Shown here: positions 1-30,423 of the stretch, piece after piece | Layout of the letters: each line of letters starts with the position of its first letter | How positions within the stretch are numbered: the first letter of the stretch is position 1 | Source of the DNA: Dictyostelium discoideum | Lineage: Eukaryota | DNA: 64,000 nt | NCBI GenBank assembly: GCA_000004695.1 | Contig: CM000151.3 | Span: forward strand, 3,616,001-3,680,000 | Direction: 5' to 3' | Notes under the pieces: generated by a model | What the model saw: the letters and a program-made list of their open reading frames with translations, nothing else | Told to the model about the DNA's origin: nothing | Database searches by the model: none | Made by a program: the position numbers and the translations under genes

Positions 1-717
1 TTGTCTATTTGAATATTTAAATTTCGATTATTAAAGGTCAATAAACCAAAATTGTTTGGCGAATATGTGGGTTTTAAAAATGATGCTTTTAAAGAATAGT
101 TTGAATTTTGACCACTTTCAAACCCAAATGGCCAACTAAAGATATATTGAAAACCTAAATTCCATCTAAAATAAAATGAAAATGTTTCATACTGGGTATT
201 TGAATTGAATCCAAATGAAAACATTGTTGAGTTTAATGTTAAAGGTACTGATATTGGTTCAACAATGACATTTGGAAATGTAAAATTAAAATTATCTATT
301 CATTTTTTTAAAAAAAAAAATTAAAATAATGTCAATAGAAATTAATCTTTGATATATGTATATATTAAAAAGTAATTAAATTTAATTTTAACAAACTTAC
401 TAAAAACATTTAAATTTGGATCACTATAAATTGTTGTTAATGAGTTATTAATTTTTGCGAAAATAGAATATTGTGTATGAACTTGGCCAATGAATGTTGT
501 ACCTTTTCCTGGTATTTCATATGATGGAGTTGGAATATTATTTGTAATATCTTCAATAAATAATGGATCATATTCAATGGTTTCATTTAATGTAATAGAG
601 TAAACTGGTGAACAATTAATTCCAAATTCTTTAACATCAGTTTGGTTTGGGTAGATCTTAAATGTAATATCCTTTTCTTCTACATTCATTTCTTAAAATA
701 ATAATAATTTTAATATC

Positions 718-748
<31 letters not shown>

Positions 749-1105
749 ATTATTATACTTACTTGAAAAATATAAAAAAGGAATTGTAATATTTACAGTA
801 TATTGTTGATCTGAACTATCCAAGAATCTTATTGATATATTAAACTCTGATATTAAATTATTTTTATCAAATCCTACACCAACAAAGAATAAATTTGAAT
901 ATCCCTCTAAGCTCATTGCAACATTTGAAGGACTTGAAACATTTAGCAAATTTAGTGGATATTTTAAACCTGCAAAGTGTATTGTTGCTGTATAAGGAAA
1001 AAGTGTAAATTTATAATTGTTACTTGTTAAAACATTGACCTTCATCAATTCTCGAGGGATATCTATAAAATTGATATTAAAGTTAATTATTTTTTTTTTT
1101 TTTTT

Positions 1106-1150
<45 letters not shown>

Positions 1151-1571
1151 GTTTTATATACAAACATTCACAAGAATAAGTTATTGAGATATTTTTATAA
1201 ATAATTTGATCATTTTGCAATGTTGCATTTATTAATAATGTATAAGTATTTGGTGTTTTATTTTTAACTATAACTGTGGCAATTCCTCCATATTCTTTCT
1301 TATTGATTAGAGAGACTGTTGCATCTGTGTCATTGGTGAAAACCATCAAATTTGTTCCACTATTCGAGTAATCAACTATTGCAATCGAAAAAACATATGA
1401 ACAAATTTTTTGATTTGTTGAATCTGGGTATCTATTATAAGCACCTTCTTCTTGATTTGTAATATCATACAATTGAAACTGTCCTTCAACCCCAATTATT
1501 AAATTATTTATTGTTGAAAAGCTATTTATTATCGCCAATGTTAGGATTATCAATAAAATTTTCTTTATCAT
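1..1571 (-). CDS. Paralog 0 (5' part only; exon 5 lies left of the window) of the tandemly repeated large type-I membrane glycoprotein gene (Tgr/LagC-like, hypothesis). Exons about 1166..1571, 763..1062, 401..691 and 1..295.
   Basis: Signal peptide MIKKILLIILTLAIINSF starts at the ATG at 1571. Each exon ends in a GTAAGT-type donor one base past a codon (phase 1) and resumes after an (A/T)AG acceptor with the frame conserved. Bases 1-300 are near-identical to 5459-5760, which is exon 4 of paralog 1. The protein is collinear with paralogs 1 and 2. Confidence 0.5.
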
Positions 1572-1737
1572 TTTTTTTTTTTGTTTATTTAAACTTGCAA
1601 TAAGTTTTTTTTTTTTTATTAAAACAACAAAAAAAAAAAAAAAAAACTTGCCCTTTAGCAAACATTTTTTTTTATTTTTGCTTTTTTTTTTTTTTTTACG
1701 ATTTGCTGAGCTAATAAAAGATATTTAAAAAAAGATA

Positions 1738-1770
<33 letters not shown>

Positions 1771-2472
1771 AAATAAAAAACAAAAAAAAAATTTTGAAAT
1801 TCTAAGGGGCAAACAGAAAAAAAAAAAAAAAAAAAGACACAAAATTTCTTTTCGCTTTTATTACCAAACAAATTGGTGTCGTTTTGTTAAAAAAAAAAAA
1901 AAAAAAACAAAATATTGATGATTGTTTTTTATATATATTTTATAAGGCGGTTGTAAAAATTTTTGCATTAAAGTGTTCCTCTTTTTTTTTATTTTTTTTT
2001 TTTACTTTTATTTTTTTTATTTTCTGTGTAACTCCCCTTATTATTTTATCTTTTATTATTATTGTTATTTTTAAAAAAACAACATTCATCTAAATGATTG
2101 GTTCATTTTACTTGTTTTTTATTTTTTTTTTGGTTTTTTTTTTTCTTTTTACCAAATAATTGGTTTTTTGGTGTTGTTGATGAAATCAATTGCTTTTTCT
2201 TTCTACTAATCTTGATCCATTTTTTTGTTCTATCTCAAGCTAATTGATTATATAATTAATGGTGATTTTGTCTTTTTTTTTTTTTTTTAAAGATTAATTT
2301 AAAAAATAATAAAAAAAAAAAAATTAAAATTTTTTTTATATATACTTTTTTTTTCGAATTAAAAGTCCTGTTTTTATTTGTTTTTATCTTTTATTTTTTA
2401 TTTTTTATTTTTATTTTTTTTCCAAGATTTATAATTTAAATATTAGAATTAAATTAACTGATTAAGTAATTA

Positions 2473-5400
2473 TCAGTTAATTGTTTGTAATTTCTTTTGT
2501 ACTTTTCTTTGGAATTTTTTTGATTTTCTGTTTTTCACAACCAAGTAAACAACTGATACAATAACTACAGTGGCAAAAGCAATAGAACCAATAATAATAC
2601 CAGCGAGTTGAGCACTTGTTAGTTTTGATTTATTTGATGTACAAATTGAATTATTATCATTATTTGATACTGGTTTACTATCTACTAATACTGAAAAGTC
2701 TGGATCAATAATTATTGATTGTTTATAGTTTGGTATTGTAATACCAATGAATGATTGTGATACTGATGATGTTTGAATTGAGTTCATTTTTGAATCTAAT
2801 AATTGATTTTCAATTGAAGACACTTTTGAATCGATGATTGCTCTTTTAATGAATCTACCATAAAGTGAATGATCATCAATTTGAATTTTAAAGAAGTTTG
2901 AATTATCACCATCGCTTGTATCTCCAAATACTTTTAATGAACAAGTATCTTTGGAAGTTGATGATTCGAATAATGCTGACATTACAAGTTGAAGACTATT
3001 TAATTGTTTTAAAAATTTATATTCTGTAATTTCAATTGTATATTTAATACTTGATGGATTCATTGTTATATTATTATTTGCGAATTGAATAATTGTCGTT
3101 TGATTGAACCATTCTAAAGTTACAGTAATATTGGTTGTTAATGTATTTGTTGATTTTGTATCACCACTTTGAATACTTGTAAAGTATTGACTTTTAATAT
3201 TATTAATTGGTGTATAAATCCATTTATCAAATGTATATAAATTAACTTGATTTGAATTAAAATCTAATTCTCTTAATGATACAATTGAAATCAATGATTT
3301 GAATAAATAATTTGTACTATTTGATGTTTGATTATTGTTATCGATAATTGGTAATTCAGTTGATGGTTGTGATGTATTTGTTGATGGTTGTGGTATAATT
3401 ATAACTTGTGAATTACAATCATTACCAATCCAAGGTGGATAACAAATACATCCACTTGATGAACAAAAACCTTGTTTTGATCCACCACATACTGGTTCAC
3501 CTAAACATGTTTGTGGTTTATTCGTTGGCATTGGTGATGATGTAGGTATTGGTGTTTGTGTTGGTGTTGGATCTATAAAATTATAAACTATTGGATTGAC
3601 AGTGAATTCATTTGATGTGAGTGGTAGGTCTGAAACTTTGATAATGAATGGTTTATCGGTTGGTTTAATATTTTTAATAAAAATTGCACTCCAATAAACT
3701 GTAGTTGGTACTATTTGATTAAAGCTTGAGTCTCCTTCATATTTTACATATACTTGTTGCGTTGAATTGAAACATCTACCTGTTATCCATAACTCGCTAT
3801 CAAATGAATTAAATTTACTGCATTTTGTGATTTGTATTACTTTATTAAAAGTTATATTATTAATTGTATATATAAAAGATAAATTATTTAGTGATTCGCT
3901 TGAATATCCGCTATAATAACCGCCATTATTAATGAATCCATAAACACTGAAAATAATATCTGAATTGTATCCAAATCCTATTGGTAAATCGATAGTACAT
4001 GTATAGGTTGCAGCTGTTTCGTTTATTGAAATAATAGATGATACACATTCAAGTGTTTGTACTTCTATTGTTTCAATATAAACAACTGGATATTGTTTAT
4101 CTTTTAAACCACTTTCAATATCTACTGCTTCAAAGTTGAATGATAAGTATTGAGTACCATCACTATTTTGTTTTAATATTGGTATGAATGAAGTTAAAAT
4201 TGGTGGTGAACTATCGATACCATCATTTTCACCACTACATGTTTTATATACTTTATTTATTGTTGGATCTGATAAATAATTTATAAATACATTTTTAATA
4301 CCATCCATTTCACCAACTACATAAAATTCACCTGAAAAGCCTTGAGTATCATATAATTTAACTTGTGTGATAATATAATTTTGAGATGCACATTTACTTG
4401 GTAAAGTTATATTAATTTGATAATCACCATTAAATTTATCACCTCTTGTTAAATTTTGAGTTGTTAAATGGAATTTATAAGTTGAACTATCCATTTCACC
4501 TCTCACTATAATATCACCATAATCAAAACCATTAATTGGATCATCTATTGTAAATTTCCAACCAAATTCATTTGGTGAATTAATTTTTTCAATATTACTA
4601 AATATTGGTCCATACGCATCGAAATGTTTAGAAACAATAAATAGTTGTGATGATAAAGGAAACATATCATTTGTTATTGAAGATTGATAACCACACATTA
4701 AAAAGAAACTGAGTGGACCAGGTCTAGTGTTTGCAAGAACTGTAAATTTAATTTGATATTTTGAAATTGTTGAATTCCAAGTTGCAAACTTTAAACTATC
4801 GAAAACTATATTAGATTCTGTGGTATTACTATTTAAAATAAAAAGTGAGAATGAAGCTGAAGGATCACTATGGGCTTGAGTACCATTATAATTGAAATAA
4901 ATTATATTATCAACTGATTTATTTGCCACATCAATATAATTTTTTAAAAATGTAATATTTTCTATTAAAACAGGTAATATTGTTGGAGCTTTATAATCTA
5001 TAACTGAAAATGGATTAATTGAAAAATAACTATTTACATAATAAACTTGACTCTTTTTAAAAGTTGAATCTCCAATAGATAAAACTGAAAATCCACGCCC
5101 TTTAAAATCATAAACAATTTCATATATATTATTTTCAGCATCTACCAATGATTCTTGTCTATATATTGCATTTGCATCATCATTAATTTGAATGAAAAGA
5201 TTATAACCAATCTCTTTATATGTTGGTTTTATTTTAATTATTAATAAATGAAATTGTTCAAAAAGGTATATAACTTTACATGATTCTAATTCTAATGGTA
5301 GTAATGATGAATTTATCGCTATTTTTAAAAATATTTTTTAATGTTAGTACTTGTTTGTGTGTGGGGTGTGTGTGTGTGTTATTCAGTAGTAGTTTAGAAT

Positions 5401-6976
5401 ATTAATGATTATATATGTATATTAGAATATTAATGATTATATGTATATATACTTACTATTGTCTATTTGAATAATAAAATTTTCATTATTAAAGGTCAAT
5501 AAACCAAAATTGTTTGGCGAATACGTGGGTTTTAAAAATGATACTTTTAAAGAATAGTTTGAATTTTGACCACTTTCAAACCCAAATGGCCAACTAAAGA
5601 TATATTGAAAACCTAAATTCCATCTAAAATAAAATGGAAAAATTGCATACTGAAAACTTGAAGTGAACCCAAATGAAAACATTGTTGAGTTTAATATTAA
5701 AGGTAATGATACTGGTTCAACAATGACATTTGGAAATGTAAAATTAAAGTTTTCTATTCATTTTTTTTTAAATAATGTCAATAGAAATTAATCTTTGATA
5801 TATGTATATATTAAAAAGTAATTGAATTTAATTTTAAAAAACTTACTTGAAACATTTAAATTTGGGTTACTATAAATTGTTGTTAATGAGTTATTAATTT
5901 GTGCGAAAATAGAATATTGTGTATAAACATAACCAATGAATGTTGTACCTTTTCCTGGTATTTCATATGATGGAGTAGGCATACGACGTGAAACATCTTC
6001 AATAAATAATGGATCATATTCAATGGTTTCATTTAATGTAATAGAGTAAACTGGTGAACAATTAACTCCAAGTACTGTAACATCGGTTTGGTTTGGATAG
6101 ATCTTGAATGTAATATCCTTTTCTTCTACATTCATTTCTTATAATAATAATAATTTTAATATCTTATTTTTTTTTTTTTAAATTTAATTATTATACTTAC
6201 TTGAAAAATAAAAAAAAGGAATTGTAATATTCACAGTATATTGTTGATCTGAACTATCCAAGAAAAGTATTGATATATTAGACTCTGGTACAAAATTATA
6301 TTTATTAAAATCTACACTAACATATAATAAATTTGAATAAAAATTATTTATGTTTATCCAAGAAGGACTTGAAACATTTAGATAAGATATTTGATATTTT
6401 AAACCTGTAAAGTGTATTAATGTTGTATAAGGATTAATTGTAAATTTATAATTGTTACTTGTTAAAACATTGACCTTCATCAATTCTCGAGGGATATCTA
6501 TATAAAATTGGTATTGAAATTAATTAATTATTTATTTTTGTTTTTTTAATTTTAAATTTTATATACAAACATTCACAAGAATAAGTTATTGAGATATTCT
6601 TATAAATATTTTGACCATTTTGCAATGTTGCATTTATTAATAATGTATAAGTATTTGGTGTTTTATTTTTAACTATAACTGTGGCAATTCCTCCATATTC
6701 TTTCCTAATGATTTGATAGACCATTGCATCTGTATCATTGGTGAAAACATTCAAAGTTGCCCCACTATTCGAGTAATCAACTATTGCAATCGAAAAAACA
6801 TATGAACAAATTTTTTGATTTGTTGAATCTGGGTATCTATTATAAGCACCTTCTTCTTGATTTGTAATATCATACAATTGAAACTGTCCTTCAACCCCAA
6901 TTATTAAATTATTTATTGTTGAAAAGCTATTTATTATCACCAATGTTAGGATTATTAATAAAATTTTCTTTATCAT
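2473..6976 (-). CDS. Paralog 1, complete: 5-exon gene for a type-I membrane glycoprotein of about 1380 aa with signal peptide, N-glycan-rich ectodomain, PT-rich linker, EGF-like Cys module, TM and short basic tail (Tgr/LagC-like, hypothesis). Exons about 6571..6976, 6201..6497, 5847..6137, 5457..5753 and 2473..5318.
   Basis: The ORF-track entries 6524..6976, 6184..6483, 5788..6135, 5437..5682 and 2473..5148 join in frame through GTAAGT/GTTTGT donors and TAG/AAG acceptors with phase 1 throughout. The four introns are 70-140 nt and AT-rich; intron 4 carries a (GT)n tract. The C-terminus is ...CLGEPVCGGSKQGFCSSSGCICYPPWIGNDC (EGF-like), then a TM (LAGIIIGSIAFATVVIVSVVYLVV) and the tail KNRKSKKFQRKVQKKLQTIN. 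Confidence 0.6.
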
Positions 6977-7205
6977 TTTTTTTTTTTAAAAAAAAAAATA
7001 AAAAAAAAAAAAAAAAAAACGTTCCCCATTTTTTTTTTTACGATTTGATAAAGATATTTATAAAAAGATATTTATAAAAAGATATTTTAAAAAAAAAATT
7101 AAAAAAAATATTTTTTGAATTTCAAGACTACCTCACAACAAAATTTCATTGTTTTTATTTTTTATTTCTTTTTTTTGATCCCAACAAACACATTATAAAT
7201 GGTAC

Positions 7206-7252
<47 letters not shown>
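7206..7252. repeat. (AAT)n microsatellite, about 16 units
   Basis: A perfect AAT/ATA trinucleotide run, read directly. Confidence 0.9.
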
Positions 7253-7253
<1 letters not shown>

Positions 7254-7774
7254 TGTTTAATTTATTTAATTTCTAATACTAACATAAAATTTGTTTGGTA
7301 GAGTTGGATCTGGAATAAAATCATTTATGTTTTATTTGTTGAAGATTTTGTTTATTTAGTCCAAAATACCTTGTTTAGTTGTTATAAATCCATTAGCTTG
7401 AAGACTTGGCATAATATGACTTGTGTTTGGATTTTGTTGTATTAGTTGTGAATTCATCAGATTGAAGACTTGGCATAATATGATTTGTGTTTGGATTTTG
7501 TTGTTGTATTAGTTGTTGTTGTGCTTGTATTAGTTTTTGTTGTGTTCCTAATGTTGCTAGTAGTTGTTTGCATTGACATTGTTCTTTTTTAGGTTGATTA
7601 CAACCTCTACAAATGTATACCATTTTTTGTTTAGTAATAATTTAGCCAAATAAAAAAATAAAAAAATATAATAAAAAAAATCAAAAAAAAAAATTTTGGT
7701 TATTGAATTTTCTATTGTGCCTTTTTTTAATAATTAATTTTGAAAAATTTTAGTAAAATATATTTTTTAAAAAA

Positions 7775-7808
<34 letters not shown>

Positions 7809-8282
7809 AAACAAAGAAAAAAAATAAAAAAATTTAAAAAAAAAAATAATATAATATAAAAAAATATAAAGCAGTTATTCATTTTTAATTAAATTACCAA
7901 ATAAAGAGTTTTAATTTAAAGGATTAAACAAAAATCAATCAATAGGTTTATTTAAATGTAAAGTAGTTATATTTATATTATCAAATAAAGAATTTTAATT
8001 TTAAAGTAATAAACAATAAACAATAAACAATAAAAAATAATAAATATGTTTATTTATTTTAATTTTAAAATGCACAATAAATTTCTTTATTTAATTTAAA
8101 TTATGGAACAATGAATTTTAATTTATAAAAAAAAAAAAAAAAAAAAAAAATCACCAATACACAGAGAATAATAAAATAAAATTATTTGTTGATATTATAA
8201 TAAAAATGATAAAAAATATTAAATTAATTTTAAATATTAATATCTTTTTTTTCATTATTATTTTCCTTTGTTATATAAAGGA

Positions 8283-8636
8283 ATTTCCTTTATAAGTGAT
8301 TCGCTTGAATATCCGCTATAATAACCGCCATAGTCAATATTGGTCCATATTCATTGAAATGTTTAGAAACAATTAATAGTTGTGATGATAAAGGAAACAT
8401 ATCATTTGTTATTGAAGATTGATAAGTACTAATTAAAAAGAAACTGAGTGGATCAGGTCTAGTATTTGTAAGAACTGTAAATTTAATTTGATTTTTTGAA
8501 ACTATTGAAATATATATTAGATCATATCTGTATTACTACTATTTAAAATAAAAAGTGAGAATGTAGCTGAAGATCACTGTGGCCTGAGTATCATTATAAT
8601 TGAAATAAATTATATTATCAACTCCTATTAAGATTT
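8283..8636 (-). pseudogene. Degenerate, internally deleted fragment of the large glycoprotein gene (matches paralog 1 around 3893-3930 joined to about 4600-4925)
   Basis: About 85-90% nucleotide identity to two non-adjacent segments of exon 5. It contains indels and frame breaks and has no flanking exons. Confidence 0.55.
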
Positions 8637-8882
8637 AAAAATAAAAAATTTAATATTTAAAAAAAAAAAAAAATATTTTCAAATAATTTTTTTTTTTTTT
8701 TTTTTTAAATCCATAATTTTAAAAATATTTTGACACATACACCATATCGATGAATCATTACATCAAAATACCTTAGTAAGTTTTTTTTATTTTTTTATTT
8801 TTTCAATTTGTTTAAATAATTAATTTTTATTAATTATATATATATACTCAAAATGATAAATTTTATTTAATTTTTAAAAATA

Positions 8883-9275
8883 TTTCATCACCAAATAGAC
8901 AAGAAAGATATGAAGCAGTTAAATGTGTTAGAGAAATTTTATCTGATGGTAAGTTTTTTATTTTTATTTTTTTTTTTTTTTAATTGACTTTTTTTTTTTT
9001 AAATTGACTTTTTTTTTTTAAATGACTTTTTTTTTTTTTTTTTTATTATTTATTATAAAAAAAAGATAATAATCCACAAATTGATAGAGTTATTAGTTCA
9101 GGGTTAGTACTAATTTTACATAGATATTTAGTTGATGAAACAGATACTTCAATTCAATACGAAGCATCATGGGCATTAACAAATGTTGCATCAGGATCTT
9201 CAAAACATACAAATTATATTGTAGGGAATGAAATTCATAATTCTGTATTAAGTAAGGCAATTGCAGAGTTGAGGC
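8883..9275 (+). pseudogene. Importin-alpha (karyopherin alpha) pseudogene fragment covering ARM repeats 1-2, in inverted orientation relative to the rest of the gene
   Basis: The + strand translates to ...ISSPNRQERYEAVKCVREILSDG, then GTAAGT, then ...KDNNPQIDRVISSGLVLILHRYLVDETDTSIQYEASWALTNVASGSSKHTNYIVGNEIHNSVLSKAIAEL. This is the canonical importin-alpha ARM2 motif (FEAAWALTNIASG...). The last 28 bp (9248-9275) recur inverted at 10020-10047. Confidence 0.55.
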
Positions 9276-10050
9276 ACCACAGATAGCCTTAGCAATAGCG
9301 CAGGTGGCTTCAAGTTTTGTTCTTAAATTGATCGATGAGTTTTTACCGGTTTCAATAGCTCTTTTAAGCAAACATTCGTCTATGACTCTTTGGACTTGAT
9401 CTGTTGGACCATTGGTAATATATAATAAAAAATAATAACCTCACGTCACCAATGCTTCTGATGGTGATGATAAGATTTTAGGAAACACTTTCAATACATT
9501 ACATTGTAACAAATACTCTATAACGTCATAGAAACCTGAAAGCATATTACCAATTGTATTGAATCCGTATTTAATACAATCTTTTTGATCTGATTCGAAA
9601 ATGATTTCAATGATAACCTCAACCAATCCCATAGATATAATATTGTCAAAGATCTCATGCTCTTCATTGGTTGATTCGGTCAAGCATGATAATGCCCACA
9701 ATGCTTCTGATATGACATCAGCTTCTTTATGCCAAGTTAAGAGCAACTCTTTATTGATGGTAATAGTGGCTTAACGAGTCTAAATTCAGTACGTGGTACA
9801 CCACGACATAGATTTTTAATGACCCAAGCTACATTTGAAACTAGTGATTTCTTTGAATGAGTTTTCAATATTTCTATCAAATGTAATACTATACCTTAAT
9901 TGAGTACACTATCTCTATTTTGGAATGAATCACCAGTGATATTACCTAATGTCCAAATGTTTTGTTCTAAAAGATCAACATCATTACTAGTTGACATTAA
10001 ATCAATTATACTCTCAACTCTGCAATTGCCTTACTTAATACAGAACGATT
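9250..10050 (-). pseudogene. Importin-alpha pseudogene body (ARM3 to about ARM8) on the minus strand, with an in-frame TAA and frame shifts
   Basis: The minus strand reads ...NRSVLSKAIAEL / DLMSTSNDVDLLEQNIWTLGNITGDSFQNRDSVLN*GIVLHLIEILKTHSKKSLVSNVAWVIKNLCRGVPRTEFRLVKPLLPSIKELLLTWHKEADVISEALWALSCLTE...GFNTIGNMLSG...TNGPTDQVQRVIDECLL...KLEATCAIAKAI. This is collinear with importin-alpha (WALGNIAGD, TWTLSNLCRG, CWALSYL, RAIGNIVTG, KEATWTMSNITAG). It is interrupted by a TAA where a Tyr is expected and by frameshifts near 9441 and 9900. Confidence 0.5.
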
Positions 10051-10925
10051 GTCTTGAATGTTTGAAACAGAATTATTCAGCATCTAAAGCTCGAAAAAAT
10101 TCTTTTTATTACTATTTGGAGGGCATTGCCAAAATATTAAATATTGTCAAAAAACATACCAAAGAAACAAACTGTTTAAAACTTTTCAACACTTTTATCG
10201 ATGGTCAATTCTTTGATAATTTACTCGATGATTCCAATTCTTGTGAACGAGAATTTGTTGAAGGTTACTCAACAATCAGCGATGAATTTGATGAGTTGAC
10301 TCAAGTGGTTCAACAAATTGAACCTAAAAATTCAAAGGGTGAAGATGTAAATGAAGTTAATTGTGAAAAATCTGCTGAAAAAGCTTCTGATTATGAAGAT
10401 GATATTGCTAAATTATATGAAATGAAACTTAATGAATAAAAACAAAATAAAATAAAATAAAATAAAATAAATAAATTTCAATTGGAAGATTTTTTATTTC
10501 CAGTCTGTTAAACATGTTGAACTGTTAAAACTATTAAACCTGATAAACCTACCAAACGATCCTGTGCCAAAGATTGGAGAGAATATAAATCTATCTATAC
10601 ACTATGACATTAGGAATGGTTTAATATTTATTAACACTTCAACAACAATAAAAATAAAAAAATTTAAACATCATCATTTTTAAATATTGGAAAAATTTTA
10701 ATAATTTCAAATAAATAATAAATGTGTGGGTAAACCTAATTAATTTGTTTTTAATTTTTTTTTTGTTGAACCACTACAGTAGAAATTTTTTTTTTTACAT
10801 ATACATAAGAAAAGACAAATAAATAATAAGTAAATGCATAAAGAAATTTTTAAAAATTAATAAAAAAAATAATAATTTTTATTTTCCAAGATTTTTAATT
10901 AGAATATTTGAATTAAATTAACTGA

Positions 10926-13900
10926 TCAGTTCATTTTTTGTAATTTGTTTTGTACTTTTCTTTGGAATAAATCTGATTTTCTGTTTTTCACGACCAAGTA
11001 AACAACTGATACAATAACTACAGTGGCAAAAGCAACGGAACCAATAATAATACCAGCGAGTTGAGCACTTGTTAGTTTTGATTTATTTGATGTACAAATT
11101 GAATTATTATCATTATTTGATACTGGTTTACTATCTACTAATACTGAAAAGTCTGGATCAATAATTATTGATTGTTTATAATTTGGTATTGTAATACCAA
11201 TGAATGATTGTGATACTGATGATGTTTGAATTGAGTTCATTTTTGAATCTAATAATTGATTTTCAATTGAAGATACTTTTGAATCGATGATTGCTCTTTT
11301 AATGAATCTACCATAAAGTGAATGGTCATCAATTTGAATTTTAAAGAAGTTTGAATTATCACCATCACTTGTATCTCCAAATTCTTTTAATGAACAAGTA
11401 TCTTTGGAATTTGATGATTCGAATAATGCTGACATTACAAGTTGAAGACTATTTAATTGATTTAAAAATTTATATTCTGTAATTTCAATTGTATATTTAA
11501 TACTTGATGGATTCATTGTTATATTATTATTTGCAAATTGAATGATTGTCGTTTGATTGAACCATTCTAAAGTTACAGTAATATTAGTTGTTAATGTATT
11601 TGTTGATTTTGTATCACCACTTTGAATACTTGTAAAGTATTGACTTTTAATATTATTAATTGGTGTATAAATCCATTTATCAAATGTATATAAATTAACT
11701 TGATTTGAATTAAAATCTAATTCTCTTAATGATACAATTGAAATCAATGATTTGAATAAATAATTTGTACTATTTGATGTTTGATTATTGTTTTCTATAA
11801 TTGGTAATTCAGTTGATGGTTGTGATGTATTTGTTGATGGTTGTGGTATAATTATAACTTGTGAATTACAATCATTACCAATCCAAGGTGGATAACAAAT
11901 ACATCCACTTGATGAACAAAAACCTTGTTTTGATCCACCACATACTGGTTCACCTAAACATGTTTGTGGTTTATTCGTTGGTATTGGTGATGATGTAGGT
12001 ATTGGTGTTTGTGTTGGTGTCTCTGTTGGTGTTTCTGTTGGTGTTTCTGTTGGTGTTTCTGTTGGTGTTAAGGGAATCGTAAAATTATAAACTATAGGAA
12101 TAACAGTGAATTCATTTGATGTGAGTGGATAGTCCGAAACTTTGATAATGAATGGTTTATCAGTTGGTTTAATATTTTTAATAAACATTGCACTCCAATA
12201 AACTTTATTTGGTACTATTATTTGATTAAATCCAGGTTCTCCAAAATATTTTACATATACTTGTTGTTTTGTTGAATTGAAACCTCTACCTGTTATCCAT
12301 AACTCGCTATCACCAGATACAAATTTGCTACAGGTATTAATTTGTATTACTTTGTTTATGGATATATCGCTCATTGAATATATAAAAGATAAACTATTTA
12401 GTGATTCGCTTGAATATCCGCTATAATAACCGCCATTATTAATGAATCCATAAACACTGAAAATAATATCTGAATTGTATCCGAATCCATTTGGTAAATT
12501 GATAGTGCATTTATAGGTTGAAGTTGTTTCATTTATTGAAATAATAGATGATACACATTCAAGTGTTCTTAAATCTGTTGTTTGGATATAAACAATTGGA
12601 TATTGTTTATCTTTTAAACCACTTTCAATATCTACTGCTTCAAAGTTGAATGATAAGTATTGAGTACCATCACTATTTTGTTTTAATATTGGTATGAATG
12701 AAGTTAAAATTGGTGGTGAACTATCGATACCATCATTTTCACCACTACATGTTTTATATACTTTATTTATTGTTGGATCTGATAAATAATTTATAAATAC
12801 ATTTCTAATACCATTAAATCCACTGGATACTGAAAATTCACCTAAATAACCTTGAGTATCATATAATTTAACTTGTGTGATAATATAATTTTGAGATGCA
12901 CATTTACTTGGTAAAGTTATATTAATTTGATAATCACCATTAAATTTATCACCTCTTGTTAAATTTTGAGTTGTTAAATGGAATTTATAAGTTGAACTAT
13001 CCATTTCACCTCTAACTATAATATCAGCATAATCAAAACCATTAATTGGATCATCTATTGTAAATTTCCAACCAAATTCATTTGTTGAATTAACTTTTTC
13101 AATATTACTAAATATTGGTCCATATTCATCGAAATGTTTAGATTCAATAATTAATTGAGAAGATAAAGGTAAGAAATCACTTATTAATGAACTTGAATAA
13201 CCACAAAGTAAAGCAAAACCAAGTGGACCAGGTCTAGTATTTGCAGGAACTGTAAATTTAATTTGATATTTTGAAATTGTTGAATTCCAAATTGAAGTTG
13301 TAATATTATCATAATCTACGACTCCAGTTACTTTAAACTCATGAGATAAAATTAAAAATGAGAAATTAATTGTATCATCTTTAGGTTCTTGAGTACCATT
13401 ATAATTGAAATAAATTATATTATCAACTGATTTATTTGTTACATCAATGTTATTTATTAAATAAGTTACATTACCAATTAAAACTGAAATCATATCAGAA
13501 TATTTAAAATCAAGTTTTAAAAGTGGATCAATTGAATAATATTGAAATGGATTATAAAATTGAGATTGTCTTGAATAAGAATCACCAATATTTAAACTAT
13601 TTAATATACCTTCATGAAAATTTAAAACAGTTTCATATATATTGTTTTCGATATCAGGCATTGAGTCATATCTTAATACTTGATTAACATTATCATTAAT
13701 TTTAATAAAAGTACTGTACCCTTTACTTTGATAAATTGGTTTTATTTTAATCTTAAATAAATAAACTTGATTATATAAATGAGTAGAATTAAATGATTCT
13801 AATTCTAATATTGGTAATGTATTTATATCCACAACTATTATTTATAATAAAATTATTTTAATTAATATAATAATTTTATTAAATAATAATAAAAAATAAA

Positions 13901-15044
13901 AAAAAACAATTACCTTGTTGATTACTAATTTGCGTTAAAGAATGATCTTGATTGAAATAAAGTGAGTTGTAGGGATTTACAGAGATTTCAGATTGTAGAA
14001 ATGATGACTTGAATGAATAATTTGAATTATGACCACTTTCGAAACCAAAAGGCCATTTATAACTATTTGAAAAACTTTCAAACCATCTAATTGAATAATT
14101 GAATAAATCAAATTTTTTAGTTGAATTAAATTTAATTGAAAATATTGATGAAAGTGAAGGTAATGGTGGTGAATAATCAATTTGAAAAGATGGAAATTTT
14201 CTATCAATATTATCTATATATTTAAAAAACAATAATAATAATATTATTAAAATTATTAACAAAAATGATTTTTTAAAATAATAAAAATAAACAATAATAA
14301 AAAAAAATAATAATAATAATAATAAACTTACATGAGACCTTTAAAAATTGATAATAAATTGTAGTTAAGGTGCCATTAATTTGAGCACCAATTGAATAAT
14401 CGGAAGAAACTTGACCAAGGAATGTTGTACCTTTTCCTGGCATTTCATAAGATGCCCATGGATTTAAACCTATATTTTCATTAATAAACAATGGGTCGCT
14501 TAATCCAATTGTTTCATTTAATGTAATAGAATAAATTGGTGGACAAATAAATCCAAATTCTATAACATTTGTTTGATTAGGATAAATTTTAAATGTAATA
14601 TCCTTTTCTTTTACATTTGAATCTGAATTTTTAAAATTATAATTTAATATATTAATTTTTAAAATAATAATAATAATAAAAACAATAATAATAATAACAA
14701 TAATTACTTACTTGAATAAATTAAACTTGGAATTGTATAATTTAATGAATAAGTATTATTTGAACTATCCATGAACCATAGTGATATATTAAAATCTGGT
14801 TTAATAAATCCATTAAATTCGTCACCAATATGATAGACAAATGGCCTTATATTATCAACTTTTACATTATACGGTTTGTCAACTTGTAATTGACCCAATG
14901 GGTATTTTAATCCTGTAATGTACATTATTGTTGAAAATGGGTAAATTGGATGCTTATATTTACCAGTATGATATAAATTTATTTTCATTGATTCTCGTGG
15001 AATATCTATTTAATTTATTTAATTATTTAATTAATTATTTATTT

Positions 15045-15103
<59 letters not shown>

Positions 15104-15521
15104 CTTAAAAAAATAATCAATACAAACATTGACAAGAATAATTAATTATAATACTACTATAAATTGATGTATCATTATCATATTCTGCCGTAATTAATAA
15201 TGAATAATCATTTGGTGATTTAGTATTTACATAAATTGGAAGAACTTGACTTGAAATATTTTTAAATGCTGGTGTTGAAATTGTTGCGTCTGAATCGTTG
15301 GTTTTTATTTTTAATTGAACTCCAGTATCTGAAGTATCGGTTACAAATATTAAGAAAAAAAAATTACAATATTTGTCATTTGTATTTGTTGGATATTTAT
15401 TATATGAGTATTCTTCACTAGAAACATCATAAATTTGAATTGCTGGATTTCCTTCAACCCTAAAAATTTGTAATATTACTATTATTATTAGAATTAATAA
15501 TAGTATTCGTTTTCTGATCAT
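10926..15521 (-). CDS. Paralog 2, complete: 5-exon type-I membrane glycoprotein gene of about 1400 aa. It is the most divergent N-terminus of the three, and its PT-rich stalk is expanded to PTETPTETPTETPTETPTQTP. Exons about 15128..15521, 14712..15005, 14332..14623, 13916..14213 and 10926..13834.
   Basis: Signal peptide MIRKRILLLILIIIVILQIF. Exon junctions: ...caacaag|GTAATTG...aataatag|TTGTGGAT (in frame), ...tctcat|GTAAGT, ...ttcaa|GTAAGT. The start of the 'ORF' 10926..13832 is a GTG artefact of the ORF caller. The 3' 1.1 kb is about 97% identical to paralog 1 (2473-3600). Confidence 0.6.
12013..12066 (-). repeat. 12-bp coding minisatellite (GGTGTTTCTGTT)n, encoding (PTET)n in paralog 2; the paralog-1 equivalent has a single PTPTQTP
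   Basis: Four to five tandem 12-mers, read directly. There is a length difference between paralogs at the homologous position. Confidence 0.8.

Positions 15522-25807: not shown

Positions 25808-27317
<1,510 letters not shown>

Positions 27318-28878: not shown

Positions 28879-30423
<1,545 letters not shown>

Follow-up and report, generated by a model that had tools for sequence, protein, structure and literature searches.

How can two neighbouring genes be nearly identical over one half and only distantly similar over the other? This question is raised by a 64-kb window of Dictyostelium discoideum AX4 chromosome 2, the whole stretch of DNA that was analysed and the frame for all coordinates given here. 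The window carries tandem minus-strand genes of the ComC-like family, called here copies 2, 1 and 0. An earlier note on this DNA had proposed that copies 1 and 2 share a membrane-proximal half homogenised by recent gene conversion, have divergent distal ectodomains, and differ in the length of a coding minisatellite, a pattern which it likened to allorecognition and adhesin families. The analysis described below suggests, with high confidence, that two parts of exon 5 have been overwritten repeatedly by conversion between the loci. It does not bear out the likeness to allorecognition and adhesin families.

The genes and their models

Three genes are needed for the comparison:

2473-6976, minus strand: copy 1, intact, encoding XP_644342.2 (P0067), 1378 residues
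6976-6571, 6497-6201, 6137-5847, 5753-5457 and 5318-2473, minus strand: exons of copy 1, from exact mapping of XP_644342.2
10926-15521, minus strand: copy 2, intact, 5 exons, 1395 residues
15521-15128, 15005-14712, 14622-14332, 14213-13914 and 13834-10926, minus strand: exons of copy 2, stop codon included
1-1571, minus strand: copy 0, XP_644341.1, truncated by the window start, with exons 1-4 inside the window and exon 5 outside it

In copy 1, split codons at the GT-AG junctions supply the residues that are missing from the mapped blocks. The gene had looked like a possible pseudogene, the listed open reading frame starting at 5148, and this was rejected: the frame stays open as far as 5318, where the exon starts, and the mapping of XP_644342.2 is exact. 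Copy 2 was modelled with its ortholog P0001 as a guide, which gave GT-AG introns of 79-122 nucleotides and no internal stops, and its product in the independent ACTFIT annotation also has 1395 residues. Exons 1-2 of copy 0 match XP_644341.1 (P0004) with 96-100% identity in tblastn, and the remainder of this gene is present in a Nanopore assembly (L001, 10001-14519).

Mosaic divergence between copy 1 and copy 2

Blastn finds 97.9% identity between copies 1 and 2 over their last 1095 coding bases (2473-3567 and 10926-12020), with 23 mismatches and no gaps, in agreement with the earlier estimate of about 97% over the 3' 1.1 kb, synonymous sites included. Similarity persists to 2414 in copy 1 and 10877 in copy 2, some 50-60 bp beyond the stop codons, and then disappears. 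The preceding 1789 bp (5306-3549 and 13819-12050) are 84.3% identical with 38 gap openings. Both peptides that had been quoted as examples of sharp divergence further 5' in exon 5 were found at the aligned position. Exons 1-4 give only scattered short DNA matches of about 75% identity. At the protein level, copy 2 is 42-44% identical to copies 1 and 0 in exon 1, 39-43% in exon 2, 63-64% in exon 3 and 40-41% in exon 4; the figure of 40-50% previously given for all four exons therefore describes exons 1, 2 and 4 (39-44%) and is too low for exon 3.

Exon 5 was aligned by codon, and the synonymous difference between copy 1 and copy 2 was calculated in 40-codon windows:

alignment codons 1-240: synonymous difference 0.14-0.44, non-synonymous difference 0.19-0.39
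alignment codons 241-320 and 361-400: synonymous difference 0.00-0.05
alignment codons 321-360: synonymous difference 0.12, a short diverged island
alignment codons 481-520: synonymous difference 0.43
alignment codons 561-600: synonymous difference 0.29
alignment codons 601-960: synonymous difference 0.00-0.10

This sliding-window comparison, which the earlier note had suggested, rejects uniform divergence along the gene. Synonymous differences per site number 42/143 in the first 240 codons of exon 5 against 10/233 in the last 374 (Fisher p = 1.5e-11; a further Fisher test on synonymous sites gave p = 6.6e-6), and a Sawyer-type permutation of the variable sites gave p <= 1e-4 for the longest concordant run. 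Perfect identity is longest in four runs: two of 164 and 208 bp flank the diverged island, and two of 185 and 206 bp lie directly past the Pro/Thr linker. In exons 1-4 the two copies have a synonymous divergence (Ks) of 0.66-0.69 and a non-synonymous divergence (Ka) of 0.44-0.46. Early exon 5 has a Ks of 0.36-0.68, and Ks falls to 0.04-0.05 in two homogenised blocks. The segments defined in this way are:

10877-12028, minus strand: 3' tract of copy 2, from the end of the Pro/Thr linker through about 50 bp of 3' flank
2414-3568, minus strand: 3' tract of copy 1, partner of 10877-12028
12429-13025, minus strand: second block of copy 2, most of DUF7035 plus DUF7034, 92-96% identical to copy 1
3919-4515, minus strand: second block of copy 1, partner of 12429-13025
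12070-12428, minus strand: less similar stretch between the blocks in copy 2 (copy 1 partner about 3571-3918)
13026-15521, minus strand: non-homogenised part of copy 2, comprising exons 1-4, introns 1-4 and the first 810 bp or so of exon 5 (about residues 1-696)
12804-12848, minus strand: 15-residue patch YLGEFSVSSGFNGIR of copy 2 (copy 1 partner 4295-4339, FSGEFYVVGEMDGIK)

The 3' tract holds the end of the linker, DUF7949, the ComC supersandwich domain, the transmembrane helix, the tail and the 3' flank. The idea of a homogenised half thus stands for the near-identical 3' part, and fails in its single boundary: there are at least two blocks, with a less similar stretch of 350-400 bp between them. 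The second block, the non-converted island inside it and the finding, described below, that the C-terminal module is common to at least five genes of the cluster go beyond what had been claimed. The island corresponds to the 15-residue patch, which is flanked by the two longest identical runs. Its sequence is conserved from ortholog to ortholog, and each of the copy 2, copy 1 and copy 0 types has its own. Judged by its sequence, the patch seems to escape the conversion of the block around it, and it is a candidate specificity loop in DUF7035.

Comparison across four genomes

Syntenic loci (SRP14, copy 2, copy 1 and onward) were taken from three other assemblies: ACTFIW, a second lineage labelled D. 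discoideum; ACTFIZ, labelled "D. cf. discoideum", a cryptic species; and ACTFIV, D. citrinum. The order of copy 2 and copy 1 beside SRP14 is kept in the four genomes.

Early exon 5 groups by ortholog: identity is 84-98% among copy 2 types and 80-97% among copy 1 types, against about 68-73% between the two types in every genome. The 3' module groups by genome: copies 1 and 2 are 99.0% identical in D. citrinum, 99.1% in ACTFIZ and 98.6% in AX4, against 91-97% between genomes. Synonymous sites make the same switch. In all four genomes copies 1 and 2 have a Ks of 0.04-0.09 for the 3' module and of 0.04-0.12 for the DUF7035 block, while AX4 and D. citrinum orthologs differ by 0.25-0.27 in the 3' module and by 0.23-0.27 across the codons of the 3' module and the DUF7035 block. 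In early exon 5, paralog Ks (0.36-0.68) equals or exceeds ortholog Ks (0.34-0.51).

Quartet informative sites were counted on the genomic alignment in windows of 200 columns, as sites supporting orthology against sites supporting concerted evolution:

from the 5' flank as far as copy 1 4710 / copy 2 13220, in each of the three comparisons: orthology dominates each window (for example 34:2, 49:0, 71:0)
copy 1 4515-3919 / copy 2 13025-12429, D. citrinum: orthology 7, concerted 50
copy 1 3918-3722 / copy 2 12428-12229, D. citrinum: orthology 11, concerted 4
copy 1 3568-2594 / copy 2 12028-11047, five windows, D. citrinum: orthology 0, concerted 71
copy 1 3568-2594 / copy 2 12028-11047, five windows, ACTFIZ: orthology 0, concerted 25
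copy 1 3568-2403 / copy 2 12028-10865, six windows, ACTFIW: orthology 1, concerted 20

In the less similar stretch between the blocks, the comparison with the cryptic species gives 22 orthology sites to 1 concerted site. Homogenisation reaches into the non-coding 3' flank, for about 50 bp in AX4 and several hundred bp in ACTFIW. Changes specific to one lineage are shared by its copies: the TPTQTP of AX4 is TPTSTP in both D. citrinum copies, a replacement of Q by S which itself looks like a concerted change, and C-terminal tails are common to the copies within ACTFIW and likewise within ACTFIZ.

Based on these comparisons, the 3' tract and the second block very probably record recurrent interlocus gene conversion, with concerted evolution within each genome. 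The earlier proposal of recent gene conversion is upheld by identity that extends to synonymous sites and about 50 bp of 3' flank, and by paralogs that are closer to each other than to their orthologs in the four genomes. Conversion has continued after the two D. discoideum lineages split, because the quartet sites of the 3' tract are 1:20 in the comparison with ACTFIW.

Some points weigh against this interpretation. No conversion event was seen directly, and the comparison covers nine genes in four genomes. Among unlinked paralogs, too, conservation is highest in the C-terminal module (52-74% against 28-40%), and purifying selection therefore adds to the protein similarity; it leaves the low Ks unexplained. 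Tract edges are placed only to within tens of bases. The G+C content of third codon positions is not raised in the converted tracts, which show no signature of GC-biased conversion. Finally, the roles of the linker as a break in homology and of selection in shielding the N-terminal part are what we infer rather than what was observed.

The Pro/Thr linker and the edge of the tract

The 3' tract ends, on its 5' side, in a linker which differs between the copies:

12002-12069, minus strand: 12-bp coding minisatellite in the Pro/Thr linker of copy 2, unit ACA CCA ACA GAA (TPTE)
3531-3570, minus strand: degenerate short Pro/Thr linker of copy 1, PTPTQTPIPTSSP

The earlier note had described a 12-bp coding tandem repeat in copy 2 and PTPTQTP in copy 1, and both were found. 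Tandem Repeats Finder reports 12002-12069 with period 12, 5.7 copies and 94% matches, encoding PTETPTETPTETPTETPTQTP; the linker of copy 1 gives period 6 with 70% matches. A survey of repeat length across strains, which had also been suggested, does show variation: the copy 2 orthologs have 4 PTET units in AX4, 2 in ACTFIW, 2 in ACTFIR (one with a substitution) and 1 in ACTFIZ, and D. citrinum copy 2 has about 5-6 PT[ES]T units. The linker of the copy 1/0 type is fixed in length, with PTPTQTP identical in 10 proteins of this type and S in place of Q in D. citrinum. In these sequences the PTET repeat is specific to the copy 2 type, as a coding minisatellite whose length varies across strains and species.

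The 5' edge of the 3' tract falls within the minisatellite at 12002-12069, and in all four genomes it falls at the Pro/Thr linker: identity is 70-94% in the 21 codons ahead of the linker and rises to 94-99% directly past it. Each family member that was examined has a Pro/Thr/Ser-rich spacer of variable length and composition directly ahead of a near-invariant PTNKPQ-C-G motif. It is reasonable to infer that a length-variable, low-complexity spacer breaks homology and so would halt the extension of heteroduplex.

Extent of homogenisation in the family

At least five genes of the AX4 cluster have the 3' module in common. In this module the identity to copy 2 is 96.6% for XP_644336 and 90.8% for XP_644339, against only 40% for both in early exon 5; unlinked paralogs reach 52-74% identity in the module. 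The fourth gene of the cluster (L001, 20317-21310) is 97.8% identical in DNA to copy 1 over 2558-3551, or 994 bp. In another cluster, the AX4 proteins XP_642467 and XP_642466 are 44% identical in the N-terminal part and 85% in the C-terminal module, and in D. citrinum the products of 005019/20/22 are 60-76% identical in the N-terminal part against 96% in the C-terminal part; both comparisons concern protein identity only. Tandem pairs elsewhere (P0227/P0230, P0026/P0031 and P0025/P0027/P0029) have 44-76% protein identity in the N-terminal part, while their last 345 residues are 83-96% identical. Homogenisation of the C-terminal module may thus be a habit of the whole family.

Protein architecture

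In copies 1 and 2 Pfam finds, within the C-terminal 730 residues, DUF7035, DUF7034, the EGF-like DUF7949 and ComC_SSD, in that order. The scores are 127-129, 94-96, 55 and 61-62 bits, against gathering cut-offs of 27, 27, 27 and 24 bits in the same order, with E-values of 1e-14 to 1e-37 for the domain set, and full-length P0001 and P0067 give the same outcome. No model in the copy of Pfam that was searched matched the first 660 residues or so. The N-terminus is hydrophobic, MIRKRILLLILIIIVILQIFRVEG, and reads as a putative signal peptide. A single transmembrane segment, LAGIIIGSVAFATVVIVSVVYLVV, is followed by a basic 20-residue tail at the C-terminus. Copies 1 and 2 are thus predicted to be type I membrane glycoproteins. 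The description of the homogenised half as membrane-proximal fits the N-terminal signal peptide and the one transmembrane helix 20 residues from the C-terminus.

The AlphaFold model of the exon-5 product has a mean predicted local distance difference test (pLDDT) score of 78. It shows a chain of beta-sandwiches, a disordered Pro/Thr linker (pLDDT 31-35 at residues 587-621 of the exon-5 product), a small EGF-like unit and a large beta domain, followed at the C-terminal end by one long helix (residues 922-967). The predicted disorder of the linker is compatible with O-glycosylation. Foldseek matches to this model are generic tandem Ig/FN3-like receptors and complement-type proteins with low template modelling scores, along with one match to the GLMP luminal domain; such matches to a predicted fold are not informative about function.

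The 20-residue cytoplasmic tail (2473-2520 in copy 1 and 10926-10970 in copy 2) is itself mosaic, its last 14 codons being the same in copies 0 and 2 and different in copy 1. The copy 1 proteins of ACTFIW and ACTFIR show 52 differences, 12 of which fall in the tail and transmembrane region.

Selection and polymorphism

The ratio of Ka to Ks (omega) was taken from pairwise and window estimates. Between orthologs omega is 0.32-0.92 in exons 1-4 and early exon 5, the highest value belonging to exons 1-4 of copy 1 in ACTFIW and ACTFIZ, and for the 3' module it is 0.20-0.28. Copies 2 and 1 compared with each other give 0.5-0.96. Copy 0 and copy 1, which are recent duplicates, have an omega of 0.96 in exons 1-4 and of about 2 in early exon 5, the latter from only 4 synonymous and 20 non-synonymous changes. 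When eight ortholog pairs were pooled, one 30-codon window exceeded 1, marginally, at 1.14. By these estimates the N-terminal half seems to be less constrained, and positive selection is not demonstrable.

Polymorphism was compared among three genomes labelled D. discoideum only. Between AX4 and ACTFIW, the family genes of the window have Ks of 0.03-0.14 and Ka of 0.007-0.055, against 0.08-0.10 and 0.011-0.045 in flanking genes, which differ at about 3.5% of positions. Amino-acid divergence is 6.9-7.9% at the family genes of the window against 2.9-8.5% at unlinked paralogs. The mean diversity of genes has been reported as 0.003 (10.1101/2025.10.22.684067).

Deep haplotype divergence was considered as a sign of balancing selection and rejected, since the divergence is not local to the family genes. 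It runs across the window to the transketolase gene, with 2.2-5% mismatches over most of 47-64 kb and 8.9% at 46.0-47.1 kb. The transketolase, 40 kb from the genes, has 13-15 residue differences between AX4 and ACTFIR/ACTFIW (13 for ACTFIW). Five unlinked ComC-like genes (P0210, P0217, P0227, P0230 and P0232) diverge by 2.9-8.5% in amino acids between AX4 and ACTFIR/ACTFIW, against 1.2-2.0% between ACTFIR and ACTFIW. Because flanking genes, the transketolase and unlinked family members differ as strongly, the divergence is a property of the lineage and not of the locus. ACTFIR and ACTFIW look like a separate divergent lineage, judging from the window genes and the unlinked ComC-like genes; in most aligned blocks of the window they mismatch AX4 at about 2-5% of positions.

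Weighing the alternatives

Could purifying selection alone have preserved the membrane-proximal half, with no exchange between copies? The C-terminal module is the most conserved segment throughout the family, even among unlinked paralogs, and has the lowest omega (0.2-0.35), as this explanation would expect. Yet it is scarcely credible here: selection on the protein is excluded as the sole cause because paralog Ks is below ortholog Ks (0.04-0.09 against 0.25-0.27 between AX4 and D. citrinum, for the same codons) and the non-coding 3' flank is homogenised too, and the paralogs cluster by genome and not by ortholog. A single ancient event, either a chimeric duplication or an unequal crossover, could also make a gene with a foreign 3' half and need no later exchange, and the variable copy number and a relic gene fragment described below indicate that unequal exchange does occur at the locus. 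This account is nevertheless very unlikely. The order of copy 2 and copy 1 beside SRP14 is conserved in four genomes, the homogenised sequence lies in two separate blocks with a diverged stretch between them, and each genome has its own 3' variants (99% identity within D. citrinum and within the cryptic species against 91-96% between genomes), with 20 concerted sites against 1 orthology site since the D. discoideum lineages split. The chance that the near-identity is an assembly artefact, made by collapsing paralogous reads, is close to nil, even though near-identical tandem paralogs are a known source of mis-assembly and short-read errors have been reported for tgr genes (10.1101/2025.10.22.684067). 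Over 1-11585, where the whole of copy 1 and the end of copy 2 lie, the window is 99.8% identical to L001 (GCA_054883475.1), an independent, AX4-like Nanopore assembly; the 23 differences between the copies are retained, and the pattern recurs in three other independently assembled genomes.

A different kind of alternative concerns the N-terminal part, whose divergence might be driven by diversifying selection for recognition of self and non-self or of a partner, with conversion preserving the common anchor. Several observations lean this way: the predicted ectodomain is a row of tandem Ig/FN3-like beta-sandwich domains as in many surface receptors, omega is higher in the N-terminal part than in the C-terminal module (with N-terminal values of 0.32-0.92 for orthologs, 0.5-0.96 for the pair of copies 2 and 1, and about 1 to 2.0 for the pair of copies 0 and 1), the copy-specific 15-residue patch resists homogenisation, copy number varies between strains, and comC is listed with a mutant phenotype of aberrant aggregation (PMC2873529). 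However, in ortholog comparisons omega is not clearly above 1 in any segment or 30-codon window, orthologs of each type are conserved on both sides of the species split, divergence between lineages is not above that of flanking genes or unlinked paralogs, Pfam finds no IPT/TIG domains in copies 1 and 2 or in full-length P0001 and P0067, and all copies lie in tandem on the same strand, with no head-to-head pair of receptor and ligand. The testable defining features of a tgr-type allorecognition locus appear to be lacking at this cluster, and we consider diversifying selection unlikely. The diversifying tips of the earlier note are better described as old divergence between paralogs which predates the split of D. 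discoideum and D. citrinum, and its analogy with allorecognition genes and adhesins does not fit an omega below 1 between orthologs, a divergence like that of flanking genes, or the tandem arrangement.

A related and equally doubtful idea is that this cluster, along with the other tandem clusters, forms a modular receptor repertoire, in which conversion would maintain a common cassette of stalk, anchor and signalling parts while the N-terminal beta-sandwich domains and the conversion-resistant patch would give each copy its own binding specificity. If true, it would be a second surface-recognition family in the social amoebae, unrelated to tgr, with copy number and the length of the Pro/Thr stalk tuned between strains.

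A model for the locus

Recurrent conversion between neighbours would then account for the locus as follows. The mosaic itself, the phylogenetic switch, the homogenised synonymous and non-coding sites and the variation in repeat length are demonstrated above, and the steps that join them are proposed. The copy 2 type and the copy 1/0 type stem from a duplication older than the split of D. discoideum and D. citrinum. Repeated non-allelic conversion among neighbours, presumably during recombinational repair, has very probably overwritten exon 5 in two places. One is a block of about 600 bp with DUF7035 and DUF7034; the other is a tract of about 1.15 kb from the linker to about 50 bp past the stop codon. 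An orthologous history is retained by exons 1-4, the introns, the 5' flank and the first 800 bp or so of exon 5, and these unconverted parts, at about 55-75% nucleotide identity, are probably too diverged to pair. The limits of the tracts would be set by the linker and by sequence divergence. Purifying selection on the common stalk and anchor module may tolerate conversion, while function-specific N-terminal domains and the 15-residue patch may resist it. In copy 2 the linker has turned into the 12-bp minisatellite, with units gained and lost by slippage or unequal exchange.

Gene turnover and neighbouring features

One further feature lies in the spacer between copy 2 and copy 1:

8332-8622, minus strand: relic of another ComC-like gene, about 290 bp

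The relic has 54-60% protein identity to about residues 563-672 of the family in tblastn and 84% DNA identity to 4601-4915 of copy 1, and is a sign of the birth and death of genes at the locus. The spacer itself is about 4 kb long in AX4 against 1.2 kb in ACTFIW. Copy number varies between strains: ACTFIW (L002, 10001-24545) has four consecutive genes, 011806-011809, at the place where AX4 carries copy 2, the relic, copy 1 and copy 0 (1-15521 of the window).

The spacer also has open reading frames within 9093-10439, two on the minus strand (9441-9746 and 9093-9371) and one on the plus strand (9900-10439). In ACTFIT a product of 158 residues, with a faint Armadillo-repeat match, is annotated in this spacer, and the ACTFIW locus has no counterpart of this gene at this position. 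Intron 1 of copy 2 holds an unbroken run of 56 T on the plus strand at 15048-15103, or A56 in the sense of the transcript. Further along, the minus-strand open reading frames 25808-27034 and 28879-30084 both match the flavin amine oxidase family and form another tandem pair. The G+C content of the window is 16-35%, mostly 20-25%. The window lies within the duplicated part of AX4 chromosome 2, because each AX4 protein has two accessions; the transketolase at 55.7-57.8 kb, for example, is DDB_G0272618/DDB_G0274019.

Significance and comparison with known systems

Gene conversion between tandem paralogs is a textbook mechanism, and a search of the accessible literature found no earlier description of concerted evolution in the ComC-like family. 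The case raises no new question in our judgement, and its significance is modest. It is an unusually clean one, with an identical split at the level of domains in four genomes and a tract edge at one low-complexity linker. It shows which parts of these uncharacterised surface proteins may differ and which are held in common, so that the short patch and the N-terminal domains are the places to look for specificity. It also carries a warning for annotation and read mapping, since the last 1.1 kb is common to at least five AX4 genes.

A named gene for comparison is comC (communication mutant C), which is listed as a secreted or transmembrane protein with an EGF-like domain (PMC4931340) and with a mutant phenotype of aberrant aggregation (PMC2873529). 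ComC has the same C-terminal domain set as copies 1 and 2, and likewise combines a secreted or transmembrane location with an EGF-like domain. The window genes are paralogs of comC and not comC itself, and are known here from sequence only.

The linker of copy 2 may be compared with the Pro/Thr tandem-repeat spacer of the surface glycoprotein PsA (prespore antigen), whose repeats reportedly show size polymorphism between strains. Both are in-frame Pro/Thr-rich tandem repeats in the stalk of a surface glycoprotein, with a number of units that varies between strains. The PsA spacer is O-glycosylated, and the copy 2 linker may or may not be; the PsA unit differs from PTET, and the PTET expansion is limited to one paralog type of the cluster.

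The allorecognition genes tgrB1 and tgrC1 are, like the ComC-like genes, single-pass surface proteins with ectodomains of multiple beta-sandwich domains, and come from large, clustered and dynamic families found only in dictyostelids. They differ in that the ComC-like genes are in tandem and not head-to-head, have no IPT/TIG match, and show ordinary polymorphism and an omega below 1. The nearest parallel in process is the set tgrB1, tgrB2 and tgrB_ps, for which intermingled paralogs and mosaicism have been reported (bioRxiv 10.1101/2025.10.22.684067). There, as at the ComC-like cluster, neighbouring paralogs swap tracts, trees switch from orthology to grouping within the genome, and changes in copy number and relic copies accompany the exchange. 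The tgrB genes belong to another family (IPT/TIG), and the ComC-like cluster is without their extreme polymorphism or an omega above 1; its conversion homogenises a conserved module rather than spreading variation. The cluster is a new and well-resolved example of the well-known process of partial concerted evolution.

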